64,000 bases of DNA from contig JAGLOA010000001.1 in the NCBI GenBank assembly GCA_023139205.1, positions 906 to 64,905 on the forward strand, in the 5' to 3' direction. Each line of letters opens with the position of its first letter. The stretch's first letter is position 1. Positions 3,017 to 36,471 of the stretch are shown piece after piece. The notes under the pieces were generated by a model. It was not told where the DNA came from. It saw nothing but the letters and a program-made list of their open reading frames with translations, and did no database searches. The stretch comes from Candidatus Pacearchaeota archaeon (GTDB taxonomy: Archaea; Nanobdellota; Nanobdellia; Pacearchaeales; GW2011-AR1). Made by a program: the position numbers and the translations under genes.

Positions 3017-3850
3017 ATGAACAAGAAAAACAATCTCCCCTATTCATTAAATTGGTTAGATTTGAATTGGGAAAAGAAAAAATACAAAAATATTTGGGTG
3101 TTAACTTTGTCAAACCAGACTGAAGATTATTATGATCTGGTTACAAATTATGGGAATTTATTTTCAGAAATCTTTTTAGAAATTAAAAAATTAAATCTCT
3201 TCGCTTCAACACCTCGCATTAATGTAGCTTTATTTCCTAGTGAGATCTTTGCAGAAAAAACCAAAATACCTTTTTCTTGGGGAATCGGGTGTGTGCGTTC
3301 AACAAATGGAAAATTCTCGGATACTTTATGTTATAAATATATTCCAAGTAGAAAAATCCCTACTTTTAATAGATCAACCCTCGAAGGAAAACGTGGAAAT
3401 ATCCATGAAGTAGTTCACCTTTTCTTTGCCAAACAAATTCCATTTAGTACTAGGGCAATAAATGAGGGTTTTGCTGAATTTGTTCCAAGAATTCTTTTTA
3501 ATCTTCAGAAAGGTTTAACTGAATCAACTAATTATTTTAATTCATTAACAGAAAAAGATATTGTAACTTTTGGAGAAATTGACACTAAAGGATTAGCATA
3601 TTTCTCATCAGAATTGATTGGTAAAAATAAAGCATATGCCTCAGCGTTCCTAGGGATTTTATGGCTAGTAGATGCTTTTTGTGGGAAAAATAAAAATTAT
3701 TTTACTGGAGCAAAGAAACTAATTAAGATTTTATCAGACTGCAAAAATGCAGAAGAATGTTATGAAAGCATTTACAAAAAAACAAAAGTGGATTTAAGAA
3801 ATTCAAAAGCTCCAATCTTAGAAGGTATAAACTTGCTAAAAACCAAATAA
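3017..3850 (+). CDS. HExxH zinc-metallopeptidase-like protein (paralogue of 31547..32287 and 34470..35165)
   Basis: HEVVH followed by NEGFAEF (HExxH...NEGxAx[FY] signature shared by three ORFs in this window). Confidence 0.5.
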   Translation: MNKKNNLPYSLNWLDLNWEKKKYKNIWVLTLSNQTEDYYDLVTNYGNLFSEIFLEIKKLNLFASTPRINVALFPSEIFAEKTKIPFSWGIGCVRSTNGKFSDTLCYKYIPSRKIPTFNRSTLEGKRGNIHEVVHLFFAKQIPFSTRAINEGFAEFVPRILFNLQKGLTESTNYFNSLTEKDIVTFGEIDTKGLAYFSSELIGKNKAYASAFLGILWLVDAFCGKNKNYFTGAKKLIKILSDCKNAEECYESIYKKTKVDLRNSKAPILEGINLLKTK

Positions 3851-3922: not shown

Positions 3923-4210
3923 TTATTGCCTAATCAATAATCCAGTTAAATCATTAATATGGTATCTACTCTTAACCTTTTCATTTTTTTTGTTTAACCA
4001 TTCTACCCAATATAGCTCATAATTGCTATCTTTTAATAAACCTTTTTTATAAACATCTCCACAATGGTCATCTTGAAAGAGAATCACTCTCTTTTGAAAA
4101 GAATGAACTATCTTTGCCTTTTTCTTTTCATTAGAAGGCAATTTTACTTGGACATAACTTTCAGACGGAACTCCATCCAAATTAGATAGTAGTGTATCTG
4201 TAACAGACAT
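3923..4210 (-). CDS. hypothetical protein
   Basis: 95-aa ORF, no motif recognised. Confidence 0.3.
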   Translation of the reverse strand: MSVTDTLLSNLDGVPSESYVQVKLPSNEKKKAKIVHSFQKRVILFQDDHCGDVYKKGLLKDSNYELYWVEWLNKKNEKVKSRYHINDLTGLLIRQ

Positions 4211-6368: not shown

Positions 6369-7918
6369 TTCAACCTCCCCTCAATTTCCTTTTTCAACTC
6401 ATCAGCTAAAAATGGTCTACCATCATATCTTAAAATTTTATTCTCAATAAAAATCCCTGTTTTTTCTGTAATTAAACTTCCTAATTGTCCTGTTGAATTA
6501 TTTTCAACTAAAATCAAATTCTTGTTTTCCAATTCTTTTTTAATTTTTTCTGGAAATGGTTCAATATATTTAATTTGAATAAACTTGCAACCTGCTTGCA
6601 GGTCTTGTCCCTCCTTGGGATTCTCGCTTGTGCCTCTTTGGGTATGCCCTCCATGGGTATCTAAATCTTTAATTGCATCTATTATTGCCCCTTTTGTAGA
6701 ACCCCACGAAACAACAACATTTTTTGAATTCTCATCCCCATAAATTTCATACTGCTCAAACTTCTCAGCTTCTTTTTTAATTTCAAAACCTTTTTTCAAT
6801 CTTTTTTCAATATTCTTTTCAATTATCTCAGGGTCTTCTGTTGCACTTCCTTCAGAATCTGTTTCATAAGAATTATATCTCCCAAATAAAGTAGATTTTA
6901 GAACAGAAATTAATTTTGATTTTTTATTTATTGTATAAAAACTTTCACCTAAATGTTTGTCTGAGATAATAATTGAGGGAATTTTGTATTTTTGTGAAAA
7001 ATAAAAAGCTTGATTAGTTAATTCTTCTGCTTCTTTTGGATCTCCTGGTGCAAGTACAACTCTGGGAAATTCTCCATGTCCAGAATGCCTCGCAATATTC
7101 AAATCTCCTTGCCCAGTATAAGTTGCCACACCAGTTCCAGGTCCAGGTCTTTGCGATAAAAAAATCACTAAAGGAACTTCTGCAATCCCAGTTAAACTTA
7201 AACCCTCTGTCATTAAATCAAATCCTCCCCCTGAAGTCCCAATCATTGTTTTAGCCCCTGTAATAGCACTCCCAACAGCTGCATTAATCACAGCAATTTC
7301 ATTTTCTAATTCAAAAACAAAAAAATTGTTTTCAATTTGCTTTTCAGCTAATTCCATTAACACAGAAGTGGCAGGAGTCATAGGATAAGCAAGATAAACA
7401 TCTAATCCAGATTTAATTGCCCCGTCTGAAATTCCCTGATTCCCATTTAAGAAAAATTTGTTTTGTCTTAACTTTAAAACTTTACAAACATTTCTTGTTT
7501 CTTCTTTATATCCTTGTTTAGCATATTTTATATTTTCCTCAAATCTATCACTAATTTCAAATAATTGTTTTTCTAACAACAAAAAATCCAAGCCAAGCAA
7601 CTTAAAAATTCCTCCGGCATAATACATATTTTCTTTATGGCCTTTCAAAATAACTCCTTTTTTGTTTAATTTATTTTCATGCAATTTTTCAGTATTTTCA
7701 TCTAAACAAACTAAAATATCTATTTTAGAATCATTACTATAAACAGGTTTATCTGAAAAAGTAAGAACATTAAAATTATGCCCCCCTCTAATCAAAGATT
7801 GATAATCTCTGGAATAAAAAACATAATTTCCCTGCCCAACTAATGCCTTCCCCAATATATTTGTCAAAATATTTGGACCACTTCCTGCAGGGCCTCCAAA
7901 AAGAATATTTAATCTCAT
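6365..7918 (-). CDS. 2-oxoacid:ferredoxin oxidoreductase fused gamma-alpha subunit (KorA/PorA-like)
   Basis: N-terminal gamma-like ILFGGPAGSGPNILTNILGKALVGQG; central YPMTPATS (alpha-subunit YPITP motif), GIAEVPLVIF; adjacent to the beta subunit. GC-rich patch 6589-6670 encodes a hydrophilic insert (DTHGGHTQRGTSENPKEGQDLQAGC). Confidence 0.65.
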   Translation of the reverse strand: MRLNILFGGPAGSGPNILTNILGKALVGQGNYVFYSRDYQSLIRGGHNFNVLTFSDKPVYSNDSKIDILVCLDENTEKLHENKLNKKGVILKGHKENMYYAGGIFKLLGLDFLLLEKQLFEISDRFEENIKYAKQGYKEETRNVCKVLKLRQNKFFLNGNQGISDGAIKSGLDVYLAYPMTPATSVLMELAEKQIENNFFVFELENEIAVINAAVGSAITGAKTMIGTSGGGFDLMTEGLSLTGIAEVPLVIFLSQRPGPGTGVATYTGQGDLNIARHSGHGEFPRVVLAPGDPKEAEELTNQAFYFSQKYKIPSIIISDKHLGESFYTINKKSKLISVLKSTLFGRYNSYETDSEGSATEDPEIIEKNIEKRLKKGFEIKKEAEKFEQYEIYGDENSKNVVVSWGSTKGAIIDAIKDLDTHGGHTQRGTSENPKEGQDLQAGCKFIQIKYIEPFPEKIKKELENKNLILVENNSTGQLGSLITEKTGIFIENKILRYDGRPFLADELKKEIEGRLK

Positions 7919-7919
7919 T

Positions 7920-8276
7920 TTATAAAAAGTTAAAAGGAATTTTTAAAATTAATGGAACTAAAACCAAGATATGAAGTATTTGATCTTGCACCATTATTAA
8001 CCATTGAATTTTATTTTTCTCTCCCTTAATTTTTTTATTCCACCAATTAACGAATTTATAGTCATCTATAAAAAAATGAGTAACAAAAATCCAGATAAGC
8101 CAGAATAAATTTATCTTTATTAAATATAAAACTGGAATAAACAAAATTGTATATTGCAGGGAATGAAAAAACCTAGGTTTGGCATTTGTTATTTTACTAA
8201 CTGCCCATTTTGCTGGCTGAAAAAACCAGTCACTAACAAAATGCGTTATTATCAAAATAAGTAATTCTTCACCCAT
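7920..8276 (-). CDS. small integral membrane protein
   Basis: 118 aa, 3-4 hydrophobic helices. Confidence 0.35.
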   Translation of the reverse strand: MGEELLILIITHFVSDWFFQPAKWAVSKITNAKPRFFHSLQYTILFIPVLYLIKINLFWLIWIFVTHFFIDDYKFVNWWNKKIKGEKNKIQWLIMVQDQILHILVLVPLILKIPFNFL

Positions 8277-8397
8277 ATTTATACTAAATCACAATCAATT
8301 TTATATATTCTCCTATTTTTTCAGGGTTATAAACTTTTTTAAAAAAATGATAAAATTTACCCCCTTAAATAATTTAGAATATAATCAAAAATTTTTG

Positions 8398-8480
8398 TGC
8401 GATTTTCATCGGAGGCAATTTAAAAAATCGCCCATCCGCAAAGAAAGGGAAAATCGAAAAAAACCGCGAGGTTGTTTTCA
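8398..8480 (+). promoter_or_regulatory. GC-rich hairpin element, copy B, ending exactly at the mre11 ATG
   Basis: GCGAUUUU/AAAAUCGC 8-bp stem around loop CAUCGGAGGCAAUUUAA; then AAAATCGAAAAAAACCGCGAGGTTGTTTTCA immediately before ATG 8481; near-identical to copy C. Confidence 0.55.
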
Positions 8481-9641
8481 ATGGTAAGATTTGCACACAT
8501 TTCAGATGTTCATTTAGGAGGATGGAAGCAACAGCCAATGCAGGATTTAAACTTTGAATCCTTTAAAAAAGCAGTAGATATTTGCATAAACCAAAGACTG
8601 GATTTCATCCTCATAGCAGGAGATTTGTTTGATTCAGCTTACCCTCCAATAGAAATTTTAAAAGAGACCTTTGCTCAATTTAAAAAAATAAAAGAAGCGA
8701 AAATACCTTGTTTTATAATTGCAGGCTCTCATGATTATTCTGTTTCAGGAAAGACTTTTCTTGATGTTTTAGAAAAAGCTGGATTTTGCAAAAATGTAGA
8801 AAACTTTGAAGAAGAAGGAGAAAACTTGATTTTAAACCCAGTAATTCATGAAGGTATAGCAATTTATGGTTATCCTGGAAAAAAATCTGGGTTGGAAATT
8901 CAGGATTTAAGAAAAATAAAATTAAATGATGCTCCTGGAATGTTTAAGATTTTCATGTTGCATACAACAATTGACAAAGCAAAAGGAACACTTCCAATAG
9001 ACGCCATAGAAACAGATTTACTTCCAAAAGTAGATTATTATGCTTTAGGTCATTTGCATATAGATTTTCAATATGAAAATTTTGTTTACCCTGGTCCAGT
9101 ATTCCCAAACAATTTCCAGGAACTTGAAGATTTACAACATGGGAGTTTTTACATTGTGGATACAGAATCAACAAATTCCCTGCAAAAAATAGAATTAAAA
9201 ATAAAGGAAGTTGTGCCAATTACAATTCATGTAAAAAATGCATTAACTGCAACAGAGCAGATAATTTCTGAAATAGAAAAAAAAGAAATAGAAGATAAAA
9301 TAGTTCTCTTGAGAATAAAAGGAGAATTAGAAAACGGGAAAAATTCAGATATAAAGTTTTCCAGAATTGAAGAATATGTTAAACAAAAAAAAGCTTATTT
9401 TCTTTTGAAAAATACTCATAATTTAAAGACAAAAGAAGTTGAACTTGAGATTGAAGTAAAAGACGTAGAAAACATTGAAGAAGAAACAATAAAAATTTAT
9501 TCAGAGAAAAATCCGTCTGATTTTAATGAATTAATCCCCCAATTAATTGATTCTCTTTCAATTGAAAAACAAGAAGGCGAAAAAACAGAAAGTTTCACAA
9601 ACAGACTTATTACAGAAGCTAAAAAAATATTGAAGTTTTAA
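8472..9641 (+). CDS. mre11: DNA double-strand-break repair nuclease Mre11 (probable true start ATG 8481)
   Basis: Calcineurin-like phosphoesterase motifs RFAHISDVHLG, IAGDLFD, AGSHD, GHLH; followed by rad50 with a 1-nt gap. Confidence 0.85.
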   Translation: MFSMVRFAHISDVHLGGWKQQPMQDLNFESFKKAVDICINQRLDFILIAGDLFDSAYPPIEILKETFAQFKKIKEAKIPCFIIAGSHDYSVSGKTFLDVLEKAGFCKNVENFEEEGENLILNPVIHEGIAIYGYPGKKSGLEIQDLRKIKLNDAPGMFKIFMLHTTIDKAKGTLPIDAIETDLLPKVDYYALGHLHIDFQYENFVYPGPVFPNNFQELEDLQHGSFYIVDTESTNSLQKIELKIKEVVPITIHVKNALTATEQIISEIEKKEIEDKIVLLRIKGELENGKNSDIKFSRIEEYVKQKKAYFLLKNTHNLKTKEVELEIEVKDVENIEEETIKIYSEKNPSDFNELIPQLIDSLSIEKQEGEKTESFTNRLITEAKKILKF

Positions 9642-19866: not shown

Positions 19867-21681
19867 ATGTCAATAAAAAAAACTTTGGTAGCAGGAATGA
19901 TTTCAGCTTTTTTATTGGGTGGTTCAGTTGGAGCAGAAGAAATAAAATCTCCTGGGAATAAATTTCTTAAAAAATCTTCTTTAGGCAACTTTGCAAAAAC
20001 AGAATATTCAGCAAAGTTGGATTCTGAAAAAACAAAATTTAGTGTTTTCAGGAGAGAACAACAGAAAAAATCAGATTCTTTAAAGTTCTCTTTAGAAAAA
20101 CGAATTTCAGAGCCAAAAATAAAGATAATCTTTAATGATAAAACAGAAAGTAAACAAGATAAAATAGATTATCTTACATCACAAACAGCATTTTTTAGAG
20201 AGGATGAACTTTTGGAGAGAACCTCTAATACCCCAAAACTAAATTCTGCTGAACAAATTGAAGTAGAGAATATGCTGATTGATACTAAAAATAAAAAAAT
20301 TAATTCTTATAAAGAGTTTGCTAAAAAATCAAAAAATCTTTCAGAAAACCAAAAACTTGTTTTATTAAGTGCAATTGGAATGTTGTTAAAAAATTACAAT
20401 GGTGATCTTAATTTAAAAGAAAATAAGATTTTCCCCCAGGATGACTTTTTTTATAAGATGCAAGACTCTTTAGAATCTGGAGATAAAAATGGTCTTGGTG
20501 TGTGTAAGCATCTTTCAACCCATCTAGAGCAATTAGCAAATGATTTTGGAATAAAAGCAGCGACAGTTTCAGGAATTAGTAAAAATGGGAGGGGTCATGC
20601 ATATAATATTTTGAAATTACAAGATGGAACAGCCATAATTGACTATGGAAATATTTTGACAACAAACACAAAAAATATTGAAAAAACTCTTCAAACTTAT
20701 CAAAAAAATAATGGAACATCTGTTTTTCAGCATTTATTTTTTGAAGATTCTAAATTTAAATATGAATTTCTTACAAAAGACGGAAAACATTTTCTTGATC
20801 TTGTAGAATATGATAAATCTTCAGAGCCATTAAAAGTAGAATTACTTTCTGATTTTAAATCAGAATCTGATTTAACAATAGCCCTAAATCATGGAACTTT
20901 TTCAAAGTCAATAGATCTGAATTATTTTGGTTTTTTTGTGAAAATCGGAAAAATAATTGGAGGTTTGTCTTCCCCTCTACATAAAATGTCTTTATTTCAA
21001 GCAGGTTTTAAGAGAAAATTTTCCATACCTAAAATAATAAAGATAGAGCCAGATATAAGTTTAATTTATGGCAATCTTTTGCAAGATAAAGAACTTAAAG
21101 ATAAGAGGGTTTTTGGAATAAATAATAGTTTTAGTATAGCAACAAATAATAAAAAAGGACTTAATCTTAGTTCTAGAGTTAATTGGAATTTATTTTCAAC
21201 TGGAGATTATCCTCTTTTTTATGATATTAAATTTGGAGGCGGAGTATCTTACAAAATTCCAATTAAAAGGGTAGATATAGAACCTTATTTTATTATGCAA
21301 TTTGGCATTTTCCCAAAAGATCTTGGAACTTGTACACATGAACCAAAACTTTCAGAACTTACAATAGGAACTATGTTTAATATTAAGGCATTTAAGGACA
21401 TAAATCTTTCATTTGACTTATATTATTTAAAGAAAATTTGGGAACAAGAATTTGGTGGAAATGCAAAATTTGAAAGCAAAAAATTTGAAATAAATGCAGG
21501 AGCATATGCAACCAAATCCAATTATGAATTCTGTCCAGATAAATATGGCGTGAAAGTAGGTTTAAATTTGATGTTAGAAAATTTAACAATTGGAGCTAAT
21601 TACAAATTAGAAGGAACAAATTATGATGGAGAAATAGAAAATCAATCTTCATTAGAAGTTAGAACAAGTGTTAGATTTTAA
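19867..21681 (+). CDS. secreted transglutaminase-like (Cys-His-Asp) domain protein
   Basis: Signal peptide; GVCKHLSTHL ... GHAYNILKL ... IIDYGN matches the transglutaminase-like cysteine protease core; SD-like GGGGAGGA 8 nt upstream. Confidence 0.5.
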   Translation: MSIKKTLVAGMISAFLLGGSVGAEEIKSPGNKFLKKSSLGNFAKTEYSAKLDSEKTKFSVFRREQQKKSDSLKFSLEKRISEPKIKIIFNDKTESKQDKIDYLTSQTAFFREDELLERTSNTPKLNSAEQIEVENMLIDTKNKKINSYKEFAKKSKNLSENQKLVLLSAIGMLLKNYNGDLNLKENKIFPQDDFFYKMQDSLESGDKNGLGVCKHLSTHLEQLANDFGIKAATVSGISKNGRGHAYNILKLQDGTAIIDYGNILTTNTKNIEKTLQTYQKNNGTSVFQHLFFEDSKFKYEFLTKDGKHFLDLVEYDKSSEPLKVELLSDFKSESDLTIALNHGTFSKSIDLNYFGFFVKIGKIIGGLSSPLHKMSLFQAGFKRKFSIPKIIKIEPDISLIYGNLLQDKELKDKRVFGINNSFSIATNNKKGLNLSSRVNWNLFSTGDYPLFYDIKFGGGVSYKIPIKRVDIEPYFIMQFGIFPKDLGTCTHEPKLSELTIGTMFNIKAFKDINLSFDLYYLKKIWEQEFGGNAKFESKKFEINAGAYATKSNYEFCPDKYGVKVGLNLMLENLTIGANYKLEGTNYDGEIENQSSLEVRTSVRF

Positions 21682-26277: not shown

Positions 26278-28974
26278 TTAGTAAAATCTTTTTTTAGGGA
26301 TGAATTTTTGTCCTGGTTTTTTAGAATGAAAATTTTTATTTTCTTTTTTATTGAATTTATTTAAAATCTTTCCAACAGGAAGTTCAACCATGCCAGTTCT
26401 TTTTCCCGAATATTTTTTCATAACATATGTTACTTGTTCAGAGGTCCAGCCAGTTTTCTTTAGTTGAGATACAATTTTTTTTTCATCAGCCCCCCCTTTT
26501 TTAGCTGTTTGAATATATGAAATTAAGTTATACAAATCATTTCTATTCTTGAACAAATAAGCTTCATATTTTTTCTTATACCATTCTTGCAAAATAATAT
26601 ACAAAACAAATCCGATAATTGCTAAAAGAGCAATTATCAAAACAAAAAGTGTGGCTTTTGATATCTTTTGTTTTTCTCCAGAAGTTTCTTCTACAATTGC
26701 TAGTTTGCTTATTGCAGGAGAAATAAACATAGGCAGGTTAGTGAAATCAATATTCTCTGTTGTAGAAAAAGTAATAGAAGTTTTCTCATCTTTTAAATAA
26801 ACATAATGGTATCCTTCAATATCTCTCTCTGAATAATCTTTCTTAAAATTTAAATTCTCTATTTTCTTCAAAATTAAATATGAATTTTGTGATTGGTTTT
26901 TCTTTTCTGCAGTTATTTGAAAGACTCTTAAAACAGGTTCAGTTAAATCTTCATATTTTGCAGAAATCTCTTCAAAAGTTATTTTTGTATCCATATTCTT
27001 TTGATTCCATGCAAAAACAGCGTCAATATACTCGCTTTCTTTATCATCTTTGTAGTCTCCTCCGCCAATATCTTTTAAAACAGAGATGTCCACATCTTCT
27101 TCCCCAGGATAAAATAAAAGCGAGTTTGTACTCGAACTTACTGAAACAGATTCAGGAATTTTTAATGCTAAAACTCTTGTTAAAATTGAATTATATCCTT
27201 CTTCATTAGCAGTTGCATAATCTTTTTTAATATTTGTAAAATCTTTTTCTGAAGAATCAATATTTAAAACAGAATTTAGCTCATCTCCATAAAATAAATC
27301 AAATGCATTAATTTGTGCTTTTACATTTTCTAAATCTGTCTGCATTTTACTCAAAAAAGATTCTATTAATTCTTTGGGTGATTTGACTGTTATTATAAAT
27401 GTTTGAGAAGTTTCTTTTCCTAAAGAATCTGTAATTGTTATTACTAAATTATATGTTCCTATAACATTATAGGTGTGGGTAACTTCATTTATTGTGGTTG
27501 TTTTAGTCTTATTGTCCCCAAAATCCCAAACATATTTTGTTATCCCAGTATTATTTGCATCATCTACTTTAAAGATAGTGGGATATGCAGATGCAGTAGA
27601 AGTAGGGGTAATCCCATTAATTATAGCTATTTTCTTAACAGAAATCTCTTCTGAAAAAACATACTCTTTATTTAATTCTAAAGTATAATTGTAATCCTTC
27701 AAAGTTTTTGAAACAGAAAAGTTTCCTTTATCTAAATAAAGTTTTTGAAAATCAGCATTAATTGTTGCAGAGGTTTCAGACAAATCAGAAAAATTATACT
27801 TTGTTGTAGATCCAGCGTCTAAACGATATTCTATTTCTAAATCTTCTAAAATTACTTCTTGTCCTATTGCTGTTTTTGAAGTGAATCTTACTGGAATTAC
27901 ACAACCATTTGAACAATCTCCACTACCATAAATTCCTGTTAAATAACTCCACAAATCAATTGGCTTTCCATCACTTATTTTTATTTTTAATGGGTTAGCA
28001 TTCATTGTTCTGAATGCTTTACCTTCAACAAAAATCTGATATGCTCCAGGAGTTCCTTGTGTTGGGGGGGGATTGCTATTAAACCCACAAGTTTCCGAGG
28101 AACTAGAATGCCCTTTTAATTCATAGTCCCCAGTCCCATCTTCATAATAAATACAAACATAATATTCTTTTCGCTTTAAAACTTGGTAATCAATTTCACA
28201 ATAAACTTCATCTCCTCCAAGGGTAATTTCTTCATAGTTTAATTCACAGTTTCCACCTAAAATAGAATCTCCGTTTAAATTATGAAGTTCCATTGTAAGA
28301 TTTTCTCCTCCTGCTTGTCCTCCTGGTTTTTGTCTTACCCAGGCACCAATTTTAAATCCAGGTGATTGACTTAAAGTTATTTTTTGACAAAAAGGAATGT
28401 CAGAGATATCATAATATGTTGGAGATGTTAGTTCTTCAAAACATCCATGAGTTTTTAAGTCAAAACAAACAGGATTATCTGCTGAAAGATTATTTCCAAA
28501 ATCAATCTCCCCATTATCAAAAAAATCAATCTCTAATTGACTTCTACAATCTGAACTAGCGTTACTATTAATTGTGAATTCCAAAGAACTTATCCCTTGC
28601 AAATTTCCAACAAAATTAAATCCAACAACCTTGGAATCTCCGTTGCCTAAACTAAATACTTTTGTTAGCTGAGAATTAATTGCACTATAACCTGTATCGC
28701 AACCAAGAGGATTACATTCATAATTGTAATCTGTTCTTGTTTTTAATAAGTCAATTAAACTAATAGAGTTATCAAAAGAATCTTCAAAAGTTAAATTTAA
28801 AGGAGCGTCTATTAAACTTATATTTATCCACCCTGAAATATAATCTGAAGCTCCATAAGAAGTTTCAATTGTGTGAGATAAATTTCCTATTTCAAATTTA
28901 TTAGAACTTGCAGAAATAATCCATGCACTTAATATTAGTGCAAAAATTAATGCAAATACAAATCCTCTTTTCAT
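26278..28974 (-). CDS. large surface protein with PKD-like domain and C-terminal membrane anchor
   Basis: Signal peptide, KYVWDFGDN...ITDSLGKE (PKD-type), TM helix near C-terminus followed by a K-rich tail; 898 aa. Confidence 0.5.
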   Translation of the reverse strand: MKRGFVFALIFALILSAWIISASSNKFEIGNLSHTIETSYGASDYISGWINISLIDAPLNLTFEDSFDNSISLIDLLKTRTDYNYECNPLGCDTGYSAINSQLTKVFSLGNGDSKVVGFNFVGNLQGISSLEFTINSNASSDCRSQLEIDFFDNGEIDFGNNLSADNPVCFDLKTHGCFEELTSPTYYDISDIPFCQKITLSQSPGFKIGAWVRQKPGGQAGGENLTMELHNLNGDSILGGNCELNYEEITLGGDEVYCEIDYQVLKRKEYYVCIYYEDGTGDYELKGHSSSSETCGFNSNPPPTQGTPGAYQIFVEGKAFRTMNANPLKIKISDGKPIDLWSYLTGIYGSGDCSNGCVIPVRFTSKTAIGQEVILEDLEIEYRLDAGSTTKYNFSDLSETSATINADFQKLYLDKGNFSVSKTLKDYNYTLELNKEYVFSEEISVKKIAIINGITPTSTASAYPTIFKVDDANNTGITKYVWDFGDNKTKTTTINEVTHTYNVIGTYNLVITITDSLGKETSQTFIITVKSPKELIESFLSKMQTDLENVKAQINAFDLFYGDELNSVLNIDSSEKDFTNIKKDYATANEEGYNSILTRVLALKIPESVSVSSSTNSLLFYPGEEDVDISVLKDIGGGDYKDDKESEYIDAVFAWNQKNMDTKITFEEISAKYEDLTEPVLRVFQITAEKKNQSQNSYLILKKIENLNFKKDYSERDIEGYHYVYLKDEKTSITFSTTENIDFTNLPMFISPAISKLAIVEETSGEKQKISKATLFVLIIALLAIIGFVLYIILQEWYKKKYEAYLFKNRNDLYNLISYIQTAKKGGADEKKIVSQLKKTGWTSEQVTYVMKKYSGKRTGMVELPVGKILNKFNKKENKNFHSKKPGQKFIPKKRFY

Positions 28975-28993: not shown

Positions 28994-29067
28994 AACTTAT
29001 AAATATTTTCTATTTCTTCTTTTTCTTCCCCAATAATTTCTTAAATTTCCCTTTCTTTTTTTAAAAT
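28994..29067 (+). repeat. direct repeat R1 (orphan copy of the 3' end of gene 32329..33750)
   Basis: 63/64 nt near-identical to 32324-32385; its first 28 nt are also identical to 29847-29874. Confidence 0.7.
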
Positions 29068-29171
29068 TAATAGAATATAAAATTGAGTATGATAAAATTT
29101 AAATAGATTGAACAATTCTTCTTTATGAAAAGATCTTCCAGCATTTAGTTCATCTTATTGGAAGAAAAAAG

Positions 29172-29825
29172 ATGAAAACATTAAATAAACACATTAAATG
29201 GAGAAAAGAAAAAGAAATACTTATTTGCGATTGCAAGAGAAATATCAACTTAAAAGTTCCTTTAAAATACGAAAAAGAATTAATTAAACTAGAAAAAGGA
29301 GAAAAAATAAATGAAAAATTAGAATTAGACTTTAAAAAATTAGGATTTTTAGTTGATTTAGAAATAAAACAAATAAACGATCTAAATGAATTATTTAAAT
29401 TATTAGACAAATTCCTAAAAAGAGCAAGAACAAATAGTTTTCTAACAAAAAGATACAAAGAAAATCCAAAGTTATTTATTGGAATTTATTTAGATAAAGA
29501 ATTAATTGGAGCAATAGGTGGTTTTTATAGAGAAGATTATTCTTTAATAAGTGAATTAGCTATTGATTCAAAATTTAGAAGAAGGGGCTTTGCAACTTTA
29601 TTAGTAAAAGAATTTGAGAAAAAAGCAGGAAAAATACAAGTTGGTGCTTTAGATGAAGCTATTGGTTTTTATGAATCACTTGGGTATGAATCTTATTTAT
29701 TTGTTCAAAAAGACAAAGAAAATTTCTATATAAAACATACCTCTGATTTAAAAAGAATTATAGAATTAAGAAAAAAATGCCCAAGTTTATGTTTCCAATA
29801 CATATTCAGGAAATATTGGGAGTGA
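29172..29825 (+). CDS. GNAT-family N-acetyltransferase with N-terminal extension
   Basis: C-terminal GNAT motif A FRRRGFATLLV; upstream 23-nt promoter-like sequence identical to that upstream of 39495. Confidence 0.5.
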   Translation: MKTLNKHIKWRKEKEILICDCKRNINLKVPLKYEKELIKLEKGEKINEKLELDFKKLGFLVDLEIKQINDLNELFKLLDKFLKRARTNSFLTKRYKENPKLFIGIYLDKELIGAIGGFYREDYSLISELAIDSKFRRRGFATLLVKEFEKKAGKIQVGALDEAIGFYESLGYESYLFVQKDKENFYIKHTSDLKRIIELRKKCPSLCFQYIFRKYWE

Positions 29826-29846
29826 AAGTTCCTAAAAAATAAAAAA

Positions 29847-29874
29847 AACTTATAAATATTTTCTATTTCTTCTT
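29847..29874 (+). repeat. direct repeat R2 (28-nt partial copy, TATA-like AACTTATAAATATTTTC) upstream of the precursor-rSAM operon
   Basis: 28/28 identical to 28994-29021. Confidence 0.6.
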
Positions 29875-29953
29875 ACTCAAAATCTTTTTCTTTTCACCTG
29901 CCAGAAAATTGAAGTATAGAAATCTATTTAAACTTTGAAGTGTGTAGAAAATT

Positions 29954-30118
29954 ATGGAAAAACTTGAAGCAAAAGCTGAAGAATTTGTTGGAAAAATGGA
30001 ACTTCGTTGCAAAGGTTGGTGCCATGACAAATATGAAATGAGATGTAAAGGATGGTGTCATGATGGAACTCCAAAAATGTATGACACAGATTTTCCAAAT
30101 GTTGAATACTTTAATTAA
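29954..30118 (+). CDS. candidate RiPP precursor peptide (54 aa) with tandem RCKGWCHD core repeats
   Basis: MEKLEAKAEEFVGKMELRCKGWCHDKYEMRCKGWCHDGTPKMYDTDFPNVEYFN; ends 36 nt upstream of the rSAM/SPASM gene; below the 60-aa ORF-track cutoff. Coordinates anchored on the antisense ORF 29924..30226 frame. Confidence 0.5.
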   Translation: MEKLEAKAEEFVGKMELRCKGWCHDKYEMRCKGWCHDGTPKMYDTDFPNVEYFN

Positions 30119-30154
30119 ATGCAAAAAGAAAAACTTTTCTTGAATCTTTTTTAG

Positions 30155-31564
30155 ATGAGACTTTCTAAATTTACCCATGTTTATGAATGTATTTATGAAG
30201 AAAACTGCTATTACCTTATTAGACATTCAATAACAAATAAATCTTTCTTTTTTACTGAAAAGGATTTTAACAAATTAGTTGAGGATTTAAAAAGCAAGAA
30301 AGAAACAGATGAAATAAACATCTTAAAGCAGAATCATCTTTTAGTCCAGGATTCTTATTCTGAAACTAAATTTGTTAATTACTTAAAAGAATCTAATAAT
30401 CTAAATAAATTTGATTTAGAATTAATCTATTTAATTTTTAATACTAGTTGTAATCTTAGATGTAAATATTGTTATGTAGAAGGAAGTGCCAAACTAGGGT
30501 TTAAGAATGATTCTATGAATGAAAAAACTTTTAATAAATTGATGGATTATCTTAATAAATTAATCCAACATCAAAAAAGGAAGAATCCTCTCAAAAATAA
30601 ATTAACTTTTATTTATTATGGGTCTGAACCCCTGATGTCAAAAAATTTTTTTATAAAAAGCTTAAAAATAATTCAAAAAATTTGTAATGAGAATAAAATC
30701 ACCCCAGATTTTCAAATAACTACTAATGGAACTCTTTTTGATGATGCGATTATAAAAGCAATGAAAGAATTTAAGGTTGGTGTTTCAATTTCTTTGGATG
30801 GAGAAAAAAAGATTAATGATTCTATGAGGATAACACAAAGTGGGAGGGGAAGTTATGATAAAATAATTATTGCAATAAATCTTTTAAAAAAATCAAAGAT
30901 TCCTTTTGGTATCTCTTGCACCATTAGTCAACACAATATAAATCATCTCAAAGAAAATGTAGATCATTTTATCAAATTAGGGGCTAGTAGTGTAGGATTT
31001 AATATACTTTTAAATGCAAGATATTCAAATATCCCTTTGATCCCCTTAACAACCTTAAATAATAATCTTTTGGAGGCTTCAAAAAAAGTTAATGATTTAG
31101 GCTTTTATGAAGATAGAATTCAAAGAAAAGTTCGGGCTTTTAATGGTATTCCCAGATTTAAGGATTGTGGAGGTGTCGGAAATCAATTAGTATTTTTTCC
31201 TAATGGAGACATAGGACCTTGTGAGGCTTATCTTTGCAATAGAAAATTTAATGCAGGAAATATAAAAACACTTAAAATTGAAGAGATTGAAAAAAGCCCT
31301 GTTCTAAAATATTGGACAAAAAGGTATCCTCTGAATATGGAAGAATGTTTATATTGCCCAGCATTGGGGATTTGTGGAGGAGGATGCCCATTTAATGCAG
31401 AAACAATTTCCAAGAAAAATATTTATCAAAGAGATAAACCTTTCTGCGTTCATACAGAGATGGTATTAAATTATTTGCTAAAAAAAAGCATTGAAGATAA
31501 AACAGGAAAAAAAGATCCATATATTAGAGATATAACTTTTATGTATTCAGATAATCTTTTTTAA
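30155..31564 (+). CDS. radical SAM / SPASM-domain peptide-modifying enzyme (N-terminal RRE-like region)
   Basis: CNLRCKYCY (CxxxCxxC), GSEPLM, ISLDG, C-terminal SPASM cysteines CGGVGN..CEAYLC..CLYCPALGICGGGCPFN; about 95-aa N-terminal extension before the rSAM core. Confidence 0.8.
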   Translation: MRLSKFTHVYECIYEENCYYLIRHSITNKSFFFTEKDFNKLVEDLKSKKETDEINILKQNHLLVQDSYSETKFVNYLKESNNLNKFDLELIYLIFNTSCNLRCKYCYVEGSAKLGFKNDSMNEKTFNKLMDYLNKLIQHQKRKNPLKNKLTFIYYGSEPLMSKNFFIKSLKIIQKICNENKITPDFQITTNGTLFDDAIIKAMKEFKVGVSISLDGEKKINDSMRITQSGRGSYDKIIIAINLLKKSKIPFGISCTISQHNINHLKENVDHFIKLGASSVGFNILLNARYSNIPLIPLTTLNNNLLEASKKVNDLGFYEDRIQRKVRAFNGIPRFKDCGGVGNQLVFFPNGDIGPCEAYLCNRKFNAGNIKTLKIEEIEKSPVLKYWTKRYPLNMEECLYCPALGICGGGCPFNAETISKKNIYQRDKPFCVHTEMVLNYLLKKSIEDKTGKKDPYIRDITFMYSDNLF

Positions 31565-32287
31565 TTCATCCAGTGCAAAATCTAAAATTTTCTTATTGTC
31601 TGAATTTTCTTTAAATTTTTTCTCAAAAATTTTAAATCCAAGATTCCTGTTTGAAATTAGTAGATTCTCAAAAATTTTATCAAATTTTTCTATGTCAAAA
31701 TTATTTAGCATTTTTTTATATGGTGGCTTCTCTTGATTTTTTTTGGATATTTTCATTTTTTTAATAGTTGAAATAGTTGAGATATCAACTTCCTCTAAAA
31801 TTTTCTTAGTCATAAACTCTGCATAACCTTCATCAAATTGGATAATTTTCTTATTCCCAATAAATTTATTTTTGTTAAATTTAAATTTTAAATAATTAAT
31901 ATCTTTTTTAATTTTTTTAGACAAATGTAAATGCAATGATTCATGAATTATTAATTCTAAAAAATCAATTGAAAAATATTCCCCTCTGTTAAATGGATTA
32001 AAATTCATTTCAATTATAGAATTTTTTTTAAAATCTATTGTTCCATAAGTCCCATTATTTAATGCACATTTTATTATCTCCTTTGAAATCCTGCTATTAA
32101 AACCATAACTTTCTACTTCTAATAGAACTTTTTCTATAAATCTCTTAAATGAATTATAAAAATAAATTTTTTTTGGAATAGAAATCTCATTTTTTCTGAG
32201 TAATTTTTCTGCAAAAATAATAATTTTTTTAAGATAGTCTTTTTCAAATTTATTAAATGAATTATTTGGACTAATAATTAATTCCAT
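31547..32287 (-). CDS. HExxH metallopeptidase-like protein convergent with the rSAM gene (candidate leader peptidase)
   Basis: LIIHESLHLHL (HExxH) and downstream DEGYAEF; paralogue of 3017..3850 and 34470..35165. Confidence 0.45.
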   Translation of the reverse strand: MELIISPNNSFNKFEKDYLKKIIIFAEKLLRKNEISIPKKIYFYNSFKRFIEKVLLEVESYGFNSRISKEIIKCALNNGTYGTIDFKKNSIIEMNFNPFNRGEYFSIDFLELIIHESLHLHLSKKIKKDINYLKFKFNKNKFIGNKKIIQFDEGYAEFMTKKILEEVDISTISTIKKMKISKKNQEKPPYKKMLNNFDIEKFDKIFENLLISNRNLGFKIFEKKFKENSDNKKILDFALDELKKII

Positions 32288-32323
32288 AATCCATAGAAGA
32301 TTTAATTATTTAAATTACTTGGC

Positions 32324-32385
32324 ATTTTCTATTTCTTCTTTTTCTTCCCCAACAATTTCTTAAATTTTCCTTTCTTTTTTAAAAT
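32324..32385 (+). repeat. direct repeat R3 (native copy, C-terminal coding region of 32329..33750)
   Basis: Encodes ILKKKGKFKKLLGKKKKK* on the minus strand; matches R1. Confidence 0.7.
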
Positions 32386-33750
32386 AAAAAATACATAAAT
32401 AAATGCAACAACTATAATTGTAACTACAATTCCATAATAATCAAAAAATGGCATTTGAATTTGTGCAGGACAAGGAACTGTTTTACTTCCCCCAACACAT
32501 TTTTTAGATGCTTCATCTGGATCATAATAACATTTCCCATCTTTATATAAAACATAATTCACTTTACATGGATCATCTGTAGTACCTTCATTTCCTTCAT
32601 CCCATTCCCATTCAGCTGTCCAAGTATAAGACATAAGTCCATCTTCACAAGTATCATCTGTACTCTTAGAAGAAACACACTTCCCAATTGTTGAAGGATA
32701 ATCTACAAGAGGAGCACAACCAGTTGTATCAAAAGTACATTCATTTTCTGTTCCAGTGGCATAACAAGCTAATCCAGTTCCTTCATTTAAATTAAAATCA
32801 GCACAAGTTTTGCTATTTAATAAAGTTCCATCACAAGTTTCCCCTAAATTTATTTCAGCACCATCACATAATCCTGCTGGATTACATCCAGTACATGATT
32901 CAATATTTAATGTACATTCATTTTCATGCCCCGGAGCATAACAAGATAAAGTTCCTGCAGTACAATCATCTATATTTCCACTACTACAATCTGTAAAAGG
33001 CATATCTGTTCCATCACATTTTTCTCCAGAACCTATTTCATTATTTCCACAATAATCAGAAAAAATTTCTCTCCAACCAGAAATACACCCATCTACCTCG
33101 CTCCACTCACAATAACAAGCCTTAGAATTTGAACTACAATCTATATCATATGTTTCTTTAGCATCATCACTTGCTACACCACAAGGATCAAAACCACATT
33201 CATTTTCATTATAATCTCCACAAGAAGCAACTTCTCCTATTCTACATGAAATAATATTGCAACAAATATTTCTTGAATAATCTTGATATGCTCCAATATG
33301 TGCATTAGTTGTTCCAGATAAAGAAAGAATCCCAACAGAATAATCTTCTTCTGCACAATTTCCTTCAGTATCAACACAAGTTAATCCATTATAACAAACA
33401 TCTTCATCATAAGTTATATCTTGAACTCTTTGAGCATGAGCATTTGTTTTAGAAGACAAACCAATTAATTTATTTGAAGAAATTCCTGCCCCATATATTG
33501 CGTGGTCTGTTAAAGAGCATTCATTTAGTTGAACCCCATTTCCAAAATCACAACACAAAGCATAATTATAATTTCCTTCATCATGAAGTTCTCCATGAGC
33601 ATTTGTAGAAGCAGACAACCCTAAAACAACATGGTCTCCATTGTTAAGGCAATTCTCTTTTGTGTCAACATAGCAAGTTTCAGCAGAAGCAATTCCTAAA
33701 AAAAGAATTAAAACTAAAATCATAAACAAACCTAACACTCTTTTTTTCAT
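32329..33750 (-). CDS. secreted cysteine-rich repeat protein with C-terminal TM anchor and lysine tail
   Basis: Signal peptide, about 60 Cys, repeated S(A/K/G)(S/T)TNAH(G/A/I) units, C-terminal VVTIIVVAFIYVFFILKKKGKFKKLLGKKKKK. Confidence 0.45.
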   Translation of the reverse strand: MKKRVLGLFMILVLILFLGIASAETCYVDTKENCLNNGDHVVLGLSASTNAHGELHDEGNYNYALCCDFGNGVQLNECSLTDHAIYGAGISSNKLIGLSSKTNAHAQRVQDITYDEDVCYNGLTCVDTEGNCAEEDYSVGILSLSGTTNAHIGAYQDYSRNICCNIISCRIGEVASCGDYNENECGFDPCGVASDDAKETYDIDCSSNSKACYCEWSEVDGCISGWREIFSDYCGNNEIGSGEKCDGTDMPFTDCSSGNIDDCTAGTLSCYAPGHENECTLNIESCTGCNPAGLCDGAEINLGETCDGTLLNSKTCADFNLNEGTGLACYATGTENECTFDTTGCAPLVDYPSTIGKCVSSKSTDDTCEDGLMSYTWTAEWEWDEGNEGTTDDPCKVNYVLYKDGKCYYDPDEASKKCVGGSKTVPCPAQIQMPFFDYYGIVVTIIVVAFIYVFFILKKKGKFKKLLGKKKKK

Positions 33751-33793: not shown

Positions 33794-34081
33794 TTAAAAA
33801 TAAGAAAATGTTATAATCTTCCAAAGAGAAACATTTAAAGGAGATAAAAATATTACATTTCTATGGGAATAATTGATTTCATTAAATGATTTAGAATCTG
33901 TAATCCATTCTGCAAAGCCATCTTCACAAATTACAGGATAACCTTTTAATTTTTCATTTACAATCTCCTTAAATTTTGGAGAAATTGAAATAAGGGGATT
34001 ATCATGTACCAATCCATACACAAAATAAGAAACTTCTTCTAAATAAATCCTTTTTCCAAATAATAGAGAACATTCTTTCAT
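33794..34081 (-). CDS. hypothetical protein
   Basis: 95-aa ORF between the Cys-rich protein and the precursor-like ORFs. Confidence 0.3.
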   Translation of the reverse strand: MKECSLLFGKRIYLEEVSYFVYGLVHDNPLISISPKFKEIVNEKLKGYPVICEDGFAEWITDSKSFNEINYSHRNVIFLSPLNVSLWKIITFSYF

Positions 34082-34282: not shown

Positions 34283-34477
34283 TTATGGACGAGGTAAACT
34301 ATTGCAAGAGACATCGCAAACATCACAACGATCGCAGGCAATACAATAATCATCCTTGTTTTTTGGAGAAGGTGATAAAATTTCTGCTTTTGCAAGACTT
34401 TCCAATAAATTAGAATCTTCTGCATCTACTTTTTCTTTTGTATATTTTTCTGATACTTGATTATATTTCTTATTCAT
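34283..34477 (-). CDS. candidate RiPP precursor peptide (64 aa), Cys/Asp-rich C-terminal core
   Basis: Helical leader (DSNLLESLAKAEIL) then DDYCIACDRCDVCDVSCNSLPRP; start overlaps the stop of the HExxH peptidase by 8 nt, in an operon with the rSAM/SPASM gene. Confidence 0.5.
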   Translation of the reverse strand: MNKKYNQVSEKYTKEKVDAEDSNLLESLAKAEILSPSPKNKDDYCIACDRCDVCDVSCNSLPRP

Positions 34478-35165
34478 TTGTATGAATCCTCCCTTTCATC
34501 TCTATAAATTCTTTTGGGGTGACCCCAAAGACCATATTAAATTTTTTATTAACCAAATCATCATTATCTCCTGATTGTATTTGATTTAAAAATTCAAATA
34601 ATTTTTTTCTTCCTTTTTCTTGACTAAGAATTTTATCTATAATAAAATATCCTGCAAAATAATCTTTTTTGTAATCTTTCATCCCCTTTAACAAACATTC
34701 TTCATCCCCTATTTTAAAATCTTTTATATTGAAATTTGGCGAAACAAATTGATACTTAAAATATGTAGCGATTCCTTCATTAATTAATCTTAGATTGGGA
34801 TGTTTCAAACCCCCATAAAATAAATGCGAAATTTCATGTGCAATTATTCCTCTAATTTCTTCTTTTTTATGAATTGTGCATTCTTCAACTACTGAAGGTG
34901 AAAACACAATTATTTTATTAGGATAAGTCACTTGCCCAACTATCCACTTTTCAAATTTATCTCTTCCAGAAAAAAAGATAAATTCTTCAGGAGAATAAAC
35001 TAAACACAACCTAATAGGATTTATGTCTTCTTCAGAATTAAAAAAAGTCTTAATTTCTTGATACATTTTATCTAATTCTAAAGAGTCAATAAAATCTTTA
35101 TCTTTTTCTTCAAATCTTATTAAAAAATTATCTTTTTTCTTTATCATTTTAAGTGTTATAAACAA
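34470..35165 (-). CDS. HExxH metallopeptidase-like protein (candidate leader peptidase)
   Basis: IIAHEISHLFYGG and NEGIATYF; immediately downstream of rSAM 35170..36471. Confidence 0.5.
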   Translation of the reverse strand: MFITLKMIKKKDNFLIRFEEKDKDFIDSLELDKMYQEIKTFFNSEEDINPIRLCLVYSPEEFIFFSGRDKFEKWIVGQVTYPNKIIVFSPSVVEECTIHKKEEIRGIIAHEISHLFYGGLKHPNLRLINEGIATYFKYQFVSPNFNIKDFKIGDEECLLKGMKDYKKDYFAGYFIIDKILSQEKGRKKLFEFLNQIQSGDNDDLVNKKFNMVFGVTPKEFIEMKGRIHTNE

Positions 35166-35169
35166 TTTA

Positions 35170-36471
35170 TTATTTTTCAGGTGTTAAAAATTCCTTTGAC
35201 AAAAGAACTTCTCCTAAATCTTTTGCTTTTGTTTGCATATTCTCAGGAAACTCAGACAAGTTAAAATCTCCTTGTTTTTGAAGATTAATTAAAAAATCTT
35301 TTAATCCCTTATTTGCATAAAGGGTTTGTCCATTAAATAAAGTATACTGGTCTTTAAATTCTTTTCTCCAAACAAAATCTCTGACTAAATATTTTTCATT
35401 TAATTCAACTTTTGGTTTTCCATCTCTTTTTATTTGTTGTTTTAAAGGGGAACTCATTCTTGAATCTTTTCTGTCTAGCTTTTCTCCTTCTTTATAACTT
35501 TCGAATCTACACCCTCCTTGACAGAATTTTACTTCAGCACAATCTTCACATTCATTGGGGATATATTCCTTTTTTCTAAATGGTTCTAATTTCTTCCATA
35601 TATCTTCAAAATTTTCTTCAAGAATATTTCCTTCTTTAAATGGAGAATGTCCGCAGGCTCTGACATCCCCTTTAGGAGAAATAATAAAACTTGTTGATCC
35701 TGCAGAGCAGGTCTTATTAAAAATTCTTTCTTCGCGTAAATGCTTAGGCAAAGCACAAAGAGGAATAACTTCTAAACTGGAAATATTTATCCCAAAGTCC
35801 CCCCTTAATTTTATCAAGTCTTCCAGTGGCTTAATCAAATCTTCTTTTGAAAGAGTGTGGGGTATCTCTTTTTTAGGAGGGTTTACTAAAGGAGTTGCAG
35901 CGAAATTCTTTATGCCATAATTTTCATACAAATATTTTCCTGTTTCATAAACTTCACTTTTGTTTAATTGATGAAATACCATATTTGGAACCACATGAAC
36001 TCCTTTGCGGAGAGCATTTTCTAAATTTTCATAAAATCTGGAGAGATTATTTTTTCCTGTTATTTGCTTATATAATTCCTTTTTATGACTGGGAATAGAA
36101 GTTAAAATTTGCAAATTAGGTTTTAAGAATAAGATTTTATCCAATCTTTCTTTAGTTAATAAAGTTAAATTAGAATTTAAATTATTAAATATTTTAGCTT
36201 CTTCAAATCTTTTCATTAAATATAATGTTACATTAAAATTCGTGAGGGGTTCTCCCCCTGTCAAAACAATGTGAAAAGGTCTTATATCGTTTATTATTTT
36301 ATCTGATAGAATTTTTGCATCTTCTTTTGTCATTTTGTTAGAAGCATTATTTTTTCTCCAATGATTATAACAATAAAAGCATTTATGGTTGCAATCTTCT
36401 GTAACTTCAATTTGCACATTAAGAGGAGATTTTAATCCAACACTTTTTTCCATTTTCCTTATATTTTTCAA
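35170..36471 (-). CDS. radical SAM / SPASM-domain enzyme
   Basis: CNHKCFYCY (CxxxCxxC) near the N-terminus, VLTGGEP, C-terminal Cys cluster CEDCAEVKFCQGGCRFESY (SPASM/twitch-like). Confidence 0.75.
   Translation of the reverse strand: MKNIRKMEKSVGLKSPLNVQIEVTEDCNHKCFYCYNHWRKNNASNKMTKEDAKILSDKIINDIRPFHIVLTGGEPLTNFNVTLYLMKRFEEAKIFNNLNSNLTLLTKERLDKILFLKPNLQILTSIPSHKKELYKQITGKNNLSRFYENLENALRKGVHVVPNMVFHQLNKSEVYETGKYLYENYGIKNFAATPLVNPPKKEIPHTLSKEDLIKPLEDLIKLRGDFGINISSLEVIPLCALPKHLREERIFNKTCSAGSTSFIISPKGDVRACGHSPFKEGNILEENFEDIWKKLEPFRKKEYIPNECEDCAEVKFCQGGCRFESYKEGEKLDRKDSRMSSPLKQQIKRDGKPKVELNEKYLVRDFVWRKEFKDQYTLFNGQTLYANKGLKDFLINLQKQGDFNLSEFPENMQTKAKDLGEVLLSKEFLTPEK

Follow-up and report, generated by a model that had tools for sequence, protein, structure and literature searches.

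We analysed a stretch of 64,000 nt from a Candidatus Pacearchaeota archaeon (contig JAGLOA010000001.1), called the window in what follows, and found that a 3.26-kb block of cargo genes is an insertion between two conserved neighbouring surface-protein genes, here named geneB and geneA, at a junction that is recurrently used. This conclusion is well supported, and so is the mobility of the block over evolutionary time. The block holds a putative gene cluster for a ribosomally synthesised and post-translationally modified peptide (RiPP). It lies between direct repeats of the 3' end of geneB and consists of two modules that are split exactly at a third, partial copy of the repeat. As to how the modules arrived, we give a probability of about one half to an accretion similar to that at attachment (att) sites, that is, to two successive conservative recombinations of circularised, site-bearing modules by an enzyme acting in trans.

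An insertion between two conserved neighbours

GeneA (26278..28974, minus strand) encodes a secreted or membrane protein of 898 aa with PKD domains (Pfam PKD/PKD_4), and geneB (32329..33750, minus strand) a Cys-rich secreted protein of 473 aa with a C-terminal transmembrane (TM) helix and a K-rich tail; each is the conserved neighbour of the other, geneB lying upstream and geneA downstream. Relatives were retrieved by anchoring on the conserved GTPase beside geneA, which gave 80 species-level loci, titled Pacearchaeota, Woesearchaeota or Nanoarchaeota. The order geneB-like gene, geneA, GTPase, OapB, OapC is general across these loci (about 80). The C-terminus encoded by the geneB-like gene lies 0-140 nt from geneA in at least 24 of the 80, and several further loci have a gene with a TM segment and a K/R tail directly ahead of geneA; in relatives, both elements are conserved in the gene that precedes geneA. 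GeneB itself is a fast-evolving gene, with homologues that are at most 50% identical (the nearest, 46-50%).

An empty site, which the earlier note on this DNA had proposed to look for, is found among the closest geneB homologues. The locus L097 reads RtcB, geneB, 45 nt, geneA, and the locus L099 reads a 585-aa gene with a weak CARDB-like match, geneB, 31 nt, geneA. Since geneB and geneA adjoin each other in relatives and the site is empty in these two loci, the block is an insertion. The unoccupied target site is present in relatives that are at most 50% identical in geneB; a strain-level empty site was not found, all contigs with an exact match carrying the same occupied allele.

The junction between geneB and geneA also receives other genes. 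L100 and L045 have a different single gene there, and about 12 loci have 0.6-2.2 kb of other cargo, including TehB-like methyltransferases and a radical SAM (rSAM)/SPASM gene. In 12 other occupied junctions that were tested there is neither a duplicated geneB tail nor a flanking repeat, and the repeat in the window is thus lineage-specific and young. The composition of the block is uninformative, with a GC content of 0.21-0.30 compared to 0.25-0.34 in the flanks, and the block was not found on any viral contig.

Cargo on the opposite strand was seen at this junction in L045 (3127-3657), L085 (4607-6167) and L100 (9450-10112), its types being a TehB-like methyltransferase, another rSAM/SPASM gene and unknown genes. 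The same type of TehB-like gene also stands beside the core unit (described below) in L102 (9915-10460) and L105 (6436-6978). It seems from this that RiPP-island genes form a common pool, reshuffled around the surface-protein locus.

Three copies of the tail and promoter segment

The right-hand repeat, R3 (32324-32385, 62 nt, minus strand), is the working copy: it is the native 3' end of geneB (ILKKKGKFKKLLGKKKKK and the stop codon) with 5 nt after the stop. The left-hand repeat, R1 (29005-29067, 63 nt, minus strand), is an orphan copy of the last 16 codons of geneB, the stop and 5 nt. Two substitutions separate them (29034 T vs 32353 C; 29049 C vs 32368 T), both synonymous in the geneB frame (TTA/TTG for Leu and GGG/GGA for Gly), along with a 1-nt indel in a run of T; the longest exact stretch that they share is 29 nt. 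R1 still translates to KKKGKFKKLLGKKKKK and a stop, the indel leads to a TAA stop immediately upstream, and no open reading frame (ORF) passes through. The similarity breaks off sharply at the boundary between the K-rich tail and the TM segment. All of this agrees with the earlier note, which had described the pair as direct repeats, R3 as the native C-terminal coding end of geneB and R1 as an orphan copy still encoding a similar tail. Its left repeat had been drawn as 28994-29067, of which the part 29005-29067 stands. The first 11 nt (28994-29004, minus strand; here called T) lie outside the R1/R3 repeat: T is the TATA box of the leaderless geneA promoter, ATTTATAAGTT, at -29 from the ATG.

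The local alignment of R1 and R3 scores 111, against 23 +/- 3 in shuffled flanks, and none of 538 empirical pairs (400-nt windows, 2.3 kb apart, taken from this and related genomes) reaches a score of 48. Each half of the repeat is found at only these two places in the window, where shuffles expect 0-0.01, and the sequence has no copy in 90 related loci and none in viral contigs. A generic K-tail or low-complexity sequence, named in the earlier note as what would undo its interpretation, is rejected on this evidence. The 17-nt core ATTTTCTATTTCTTCTT has five hits in the window against 0.6 expected; near-matches with two mismatches each lie at 9280-9296 and 21626-21642 (minus-strand matches) and may be similar gene ends, made of K codons, TAG and A-rich sequence, rather than related sites.

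The partial copy, R2 (29847-29874), is a 28-nt exact copy of T and the first 17 nt of the repeat and forms the boundary of the two modules. The identity with 28994-29021 (28/28), which had been reported before, was confirmed, and extends to 32/34 across 29841-29874. T is common to R1 and R2 and absent from R3, so that R2 contains a copy of the geneA/geneB junction: the last four codons, the stop, the spacer and the TATA. No ATG is found at promoter distance from this TATA on either strand, and R2 therefore looks like a scar, an orphan TATA in a copy of the promoter junction. The earlier note had linked the TATA in R2 to the precursor peptide gene that follows. It is a copy of the geneA promoter instead. 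The precursor gene has its own TATA, ATTTAAAC, at 29926-29933, conserved at about -28, and the homology of the cassette between genomes begins after R2, about 45 nt ahead of the precursor ATG, and ends at the ATG of the HExxH protein gene; R2 was rejected as the precursor promoter.

R1 lies at the ancestral place of the geneB 3' end, abutting the geneA TATA. Together with T it gives the series K-rich tail, stop codon, 5 nt, TATA, 22 nt, ATG, and the architecture of the empty sites in L097, L098 and L099 has the same layout of stop codon, TATA and ATG. The geneB stop codon touches the geneA TATA in L099 and L091, and ATTTATAA(A/G) at -29 ahead of geneA is also found in many relatives. Of 48 hits to TATA-like motifs in the window, 26 cluster between -30 and -26 relative to a start codon, which indicates that leaderless transcripts are apparently the norm in this genome.

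Since at least five independent assemblies (NCBI, ENA and Logan; one sample series) cross both junctions with 100% identity, though no exact stretch common to R1 and R3 exceeds 29 bases, the integrated arrangement is real. The window matches contig DAOWGE010000014.1 of GCA_030637545.1 at 99.995%. Two Logan contigs from SRR13892604 (L005 and L009) have their ends at the left border of R3 (32310 and 32323), where just 14 nt are common to both; these ends could reflect low coverage or a population variant at the junction. Logan contigs are assembled at k = 31. With a longest shared exact stretch of 29 nt, the repeat alone should not break such a graph.

Two modules rather than one cassette

The block had been described as a single RiPP cassette. 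It is in fact two modules, divided at R2. Module 1 (29068..29846, 779 nt, plus strand) contains a 104-nt leader, a GNAT gene (29172-29825) and a 21-nt trailer. Module 2 (29875..32323, 2,449 nt) is the core unit, with the precursor peptide and its own promoter, an rSAM/SPASM maturase and a convergent HExxH protein. The block is two modules because the core unit recurs without the GNAT gene, which is absent from all other copies of the unit, and because the GNAT is of another cluster type: at 42-49% identity it resembles GNATs that follow a 368-aa rSAM in L019 and L102, and thus belongs to a different kind of cluster.

The core unit at other chromosomal sites

The core trio was found at 47-80% identity in L092-L096, L098, L102, L104, L105, L107, L108 and L110, and recurs in at least nine other contexts. 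For example, it lies between rpS6e and aIF2-gamma in L096, between CARDB and geneB (that is, on the other side of geneB) in L098, in an island of L102 that is rich in RiPP genes and also has GNAT-rSAM pairs and TehB, and in a convergent intergenic region beside Fic/rpS10 in L107. The latter is from the same metagenome-assembled genome as L018, in which the geneB-like gene is 60 nt from geneA with no cassette between. Because the core unit sits at many unrelated chromosomal sites, the unit moves, and the suggestion of the earlier note that the block is recently acquired or mobile is borne out to this extent.

Two features of single loci may be mentioned here. A DDE_Tnp_1 transposase gene in L093 (2788-3777) and DDE_Tnp_1_6 fragments in L108 (5154-5357) adjoin the core unit, outside of it. 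In L096 the rSAM gene (8001-9406) is split in two frames (residues 1-78 and 77-469), and is thus a frameshifted pseudogene unless the assembly is in error.

We tested for flanking repeats at every core-unit locus with enough flank. In L107, with a unit of 2,492 nt, the repeat is 24/24 nt (1099-1122 / 3615-3638), and its right copy comes 15 nt after the stop of Fic. In L102 it is 34 of 39 columns (6699-6736 / 9255-9293; reproduced in L103), the left copy containing the TATA of the leftward neighbour at -29. These two repeats score 48 and 50, a level that is not reached by any of the 538 null pairs. L105 has outer repeats of 34/34 nt (2560-2593 / 7022-7055) and an inner copy of 20/22 (3991-4012), reproduced in L106, and its layout is like that of the window: a long repeat, extra genes, a partial repeat, the core unit (with TehB) and a long repeat. 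A candidate in L096 was not counted, as its score of 33 is within the empirical null (11/538 pairs). In all four repeat-flanked loci, counting the window, the end of the left copy is 79, 78, 70 or 71 nt away from the precursor ATG. The lengths of the duplications are not fixed (17, 22/34, 24, about 38 and 62-74 nt), and since the repeats are unrelated between loci, they derive from the target.

Several hallmarks of known elements were looked for. When the ends of the block, and likewise those of each module, were aligned against each other, no terminal inverted repeats appeared (the observed score was reached by a fraction of 0.15-0.84 of the shuffles), and the unit ends have no conserved terminal motif. 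The repeats of the window fold no better than shuffles, with z between -0.07 and +0.46 and thus no attC-like or terminator hairpin; for structure in the repeats of L102, L105 and L107 or in the junction upstream of the precursor, z was about 0. No tRNA was found as a target. There is no transposase or Cas1 within the element, DDE genes or fragments being found only beside the unit and only in L093 and L108.

A proposed history of the locus

The earlier note had offered site-specific integration or duplication-mediated insertion as the origin of the repeats. An insertion with target duplication stands; the choice between att-like recombination in trans and a duplicating break repair is one that we infer. 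We favour the former, at the probability of about one half given above. The ancestral locus was geneB and then geneA, with the geneB tail and stop directly against the geneA TATA, and the block would have grown by two successive insertions into this same short sequence. In each of them the chromosomal site would recombine conservatively with a site copy on a circularised module (Campbell-type, att-like), with identity segments of 17 nt for the core unit and about 74 nt (T and the repeat) for the GNAT module. The enzyme would be supplied in trans, because the modules encode none, and might be a recombinase of a helper element or the RadA-dependent recombination of the host.

Either order of insertion would work if the modules integrate as circles that bear a site copy. 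If, on the other hand, the duplications were made de novo, the only order that would work is the GNAT module first and then the core unit. On either model, it is the duplication that preserves both neighbours: R3 completes the membrane anchor and tail of geneB, and R1 with T keeps the geneA promoter. The tail/promoter overlap is indeed present in three copies at the locus, and the 62-nt repeats would permit a precise loop-out that restores the intact empty site.

Targeting of the same site predicts the series long repeat, module, partial repeat, core, long repeat, and a random break repair does not; the accretion at the same site in both the window and L105 favours the targeted process. The repeat lengths, which are within the reported range of archaeal att sites, favour it as well, and so does the fact that both tandem integration and integration into the 3'-distal part of genes are documented (PMC6563490).

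A number of observations weigh against this reading. There is no integrase, transposase or other recombinase in the block, which contains only the GNAT, the precursor, the rSAM/SPASM gene and the HExxH protein; the earlier note had stated the same for an integrase. Nor did a scan of the 64-kb window, which covered the called genes of 16278-43750 and, beyond these limits, 20 of 23 ORFs with 180 aa or more, show a recombinase, and none was seen inside the other repeat-flanked units. The repeat sequences of the window, L102, L105 and L107 are unrelated and share no att core, and such a complete difference between loci excludes a single att site that is borne by the element. Each module copy would instead need host-specific sequence, and the first origin of this copy is not explained by the model. 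Moreover, 5-6 of the about 10 other core-unit loci have no flanking repeat, as would be expected if repeats decay with age. Among the assembled contigs of the same population, neither an empty allele nor a circular junction was seen. The five differing positions between R1 with T and R2/R3 are too few to place a crossover. Finally, a near-identical donor was not found: the closest of roughly 80 rSAM homologues is only 80% identical and the nearest geneB homologue 50%, hence there is no known donor.

Alternative explanations

A serious rival, though one that we hold to be less likely than not, is break repair or a template switch during replication. The cargo, as linear or circular DNA, would have been captured at a staggered double-strand break, or by a template switch at the fork, in the AT-rich promoter region, and the fill-in of the overhangs would have produced the duplication. 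This model needs neither a dedicated recombinase nor a site copy borne by the element, and it allows an arbitrary duplication length of 17-74 nt. It accounts well for the wide variation in the length of the repeats (17, 22/34, 24, 38 and 62-74 nt), whose sequences are unrelated and target-derived, for the lack of a recombinase, of terminal inverted repeats and of a conserved terminal motif, and for how the species-specific tail of geneB first became duplicated; Mre11/Rad50 are encoded in the window. It requires, however, that in the window as well as in L105 two independent insertions landed within one stretch of a few dozen bases, and the near-constant distance of 70-79 nt between the left repeat and the precursor ATG in four loci suggests a defined end of the unit. 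To our knowledge, duplications of tens of nt also far exceed the target duplications of the transposase type.

With a rather low probability, the trio may be a previously unrecognised cargo-only mobile unit of DPANN archaea, one that inserts at times serially at one spot, makes variable target duplications of 17-74 nt and has no terminal inverted repeats or recombinase of its own.

Selection instead of mobility could in principle maintain the repeats: the arrangement would be old, and R1 and R2 would be kept similar by selection or gene conversion, since geneA would need the upstream promoter context or the transcription factor B recognition element (BRE) derived from the tail, and geneB would need its tail. 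The geneB stop is 5 nt from the geneA TATA, so that any insertion between them must duplicate the overlap for both to work, and the substitutions between R1 and R3 are both synonymous. We consider this improbable, however. A BRE needs about 7 nt and not 62, R1 has a frame-breaking indel, the TATA of R2 serves no gene, no relative with cargo at the junction between geneB and geneA retains a duplicated tail, and the repeats of L107, in a convergent intergenic region, are left unexplained.

Even less probable is that a tandem geneB paralogue or a segmental duplication once stood here and was mostly replaced by the cassette, R1 being all that is left of it. Several relatives do have more than one geneB-like gene upstream of geneA, and a weak similarity of 11/17 is seen over the 17 nt beyond the indel. 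On the other hand, the R1 flank aligns with the TM-coding region of geneB no better than shuffled sequence (22 vs 25 +/- 4), R1 lies exactly at the ancestral stop/TATA junction, and neither R2 nor the repeats of L102, L105 and L107 would be explained; a decayed geneB paralogue was rejected, as the flanks beyond the repeat are not similar.

That the assembler threaded a free circular element sharing the repeat into the chromosome is hardly credible: such a circle would give the same topology of the assembly graph as an integrated element, and two Logan contigs do end at the R3 edge, but the Logan contigs L004 and L010 and the MEGAHIT, ENA and NCBI contigs, from different samples, cross both junctions with identical sequence, and the exact stretch shared by the repeats is short.

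The cargo genes and their surroundings

The precursor peptide (29954..30118, plus strand) has 54 aa, with a leader that begins MEKLEAKAEE and two copies of an RCKGWCH core. In an alignment of seven homologues, M1, E2, L4, E5, E10, R18, C19, G21 and C23 are invariant; the homologues have one or two core copies, and the core LRCKGWCH is found in seven loci. Two RCKGWCH copies are present in the window, L093 and L107, and one in L092, L094, L095 and L096, and it thus seems that the core motif was duplicated or lost within the precursor family.

The maturase (30155..31564, plus strand) has 469 aa and matches Pfam Radical_SAM and SPASM. An rSAM maturase with CxxxCxxC and SPASM domains is therefore found beside a short precursor whose leader and core are conserved, as is usual for a RiPP cluster. 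The best NCBIfam match is the FibroRumin maturase (7e-59; 199.8 bits compared to a cutoff of 400 bits), followed by the PapB ranthipeptide maturase and others; the maturase is below the cutoff of every named NCBIfam family (FibroRumin, PapB, SCIFF and others). Within its coding region, at 31271-31339 (plus strand), there is a match to the C/D-box snoRNA SNORD31 of Rfam, with 24 bits compared to a gathering score of 40 (E = 0.06). Being sub-threshold and inside the rSAM gene, it was taken as chance and not as a known RNA family that could be the target.

The HExxH protein (31547..32287, minus strand; 246 aa) has its own TATA 21 nt upstream of the ATG, in the 36 nt that separate the gene from R3; each of the core-unit genes has its own promoter. 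The protein has no sequence match in Pfam, NCBIfam or the PDB. H115, H119 and D152-E153-G154 are invariant in 22 homologues, and E116 nearly so; the family has 49 database homologues, all without Pfam domains. The AlphaFold (AF2) model has a pLDDT (predicted local distance difference test) of 95.8 and no significant fold neighbour in the PDB or BFVD. Its weak, non-significant fold matches are enriched for zincins (SprT-like, IrrE, M61, thermolysin), and none of them resembles a recombinase. From the motif and the model, the protein is a probable divergent leader peptidase of the zincin type and may be a variant of the zincin-like fold that has not been described. The label peptidase given to it earlier is thus putative: the protein has the HExxH...E motif and fold matches that lean weakly to zincins, and no significant fold or family match.

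The GNAT of module 1 matches Pfam Acetyltransf_10/1/7. Another RiPP-like cassette, unrelated to the first, separates the CARDB gene from geneB (34283-36471, minus strand; orf95, 33794-34081). It encodes a 64-aa Cys-rich ORF (..CIACDRCDVCDVSC..), a 231-aa HExxH protein with weak M1/DUF2268 matches and a 433-aa rSAM/SPASM enzyme, and is absent in L045, L099 and L100, where CARDB abuts geneB. A search of 33.8-36.5 kb gave no flanking repeats for this cassette. The two HExxH proteins were rejected as paralogues, as they have no similarity beyond the motif. The window has a GC content of 28.6%, and neighbouring genes in it include OapB/OapC, the archaeal CCA-adding enzyme, TrmB and an aCPSF1-like gene; together with the titles of the about 80 related loci, these genes assign the window to the DPANN archaea.

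Comparison with known systems

In archaeal integrated mobile genetic elements, for example those of thaumarchaea, attL and attR duplicate the 3'-distal part of a protein-coding target gene; crenarchaeal att sites have 29-69 bp, and both the integration into 3'-distal gene regions and tandem integration are documented in archaea (PMC6563490). The block shares with these elements the flanking direct repeats, one of which restores the 3' end of the target gene, a repeat length in the reported range, the empty site in related genomes and a tandem integration at one site that leads to three repeat copies. Unlike them, it has no integrase or other mobility, replication or virion gene, the insert of 0.8 + 2.4 kb is small and pure cargo, and the other copies of the unit have unrelated repeats.

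There are also elements that carry att-flanked cargo and no integrase, are mobilised by a helper in cis or in trans and accrete in tandem, such as the cis-mobilisable elements (CIMEs) of streptococcal integrative and conjugative elements and tycheposon-like islets. Here the likeness covers the flanking repeats, the lack of a recombinase, the tandem modules parted by a copy of the site and the adaptive-looking cargo. The differences are that no helper or cognate recombinase was identified here, that the hosts are DPANN archaea, and that the target is a species-specific overlap of tail and promoter and not a conserved tRNA or housekeeping gene.

As with transposons and casposons, the insert is flanked by duplicated target, and DDE genes or fragments stand beside the copies in L093 and L108. 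However, terminal inverted repeats, a transposase and Cas1 are all lacking in the unit of the window, and the duplications are variable, with 17-74 nt; those made by transposases and casposases have typically 2-15 bp. Integron cassettes are similar in that cargo modules with or without a promoter stand in series, parted by a recurring short site; the locus differs from them in having no attC-like imperfect palindrome or hairpin (z about 0), no IntI and only three copies of the site. Finally, rSAM/SPASM RiPP clusters (ranthipeptide/PapB, FibroRumin and SCIFF-type) have, like the core unit, a short Cys-containing precursor with a conserved leader beside the maturase, and a putative metallopeptidase and a tailoring GNAT nearby, whereas the LRCKGWCH core of the precursor and the HExxH protein are in no described family. 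In summary, the locus is best classed as an att-like islet, flanked by repeats and made only of cargo, that carries a so far undescribed rSAM RiPP unit.

The genomes of DPANN archaea are tiny, and their gain of accessory genes is poorly understood. The locus described here is a cleanly resolved, apparently young insertion, in which the ancestral junction, both duplicated ends and the internal scar can still be read. If the duplications were made by break repair, they would put on record target duplications of unusual length in archaea. If the trio were a cargo-only mobile unit, an undescribed pathway of insertion would be implied, whether templated repair or an enzyme of the host or a helper that is targeted to promoter-proximal sequence or to a copy of the site, along with a natural plug-in vehicle that brings RiPP clusters into surface-protein loci. 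If the repeats are a true recombination site, the locus would provide a testable model for the exchange of islets in uncultivated archaea, by a recombinase in trans or driven by homology, and a route by which secondary-metabolite genes spread among episymbionts. It would also place a new family of rSAM-modified peptides, with the predicted LRCKGWCH core, beside cell-surface proteins that may mediate the contact with the host.

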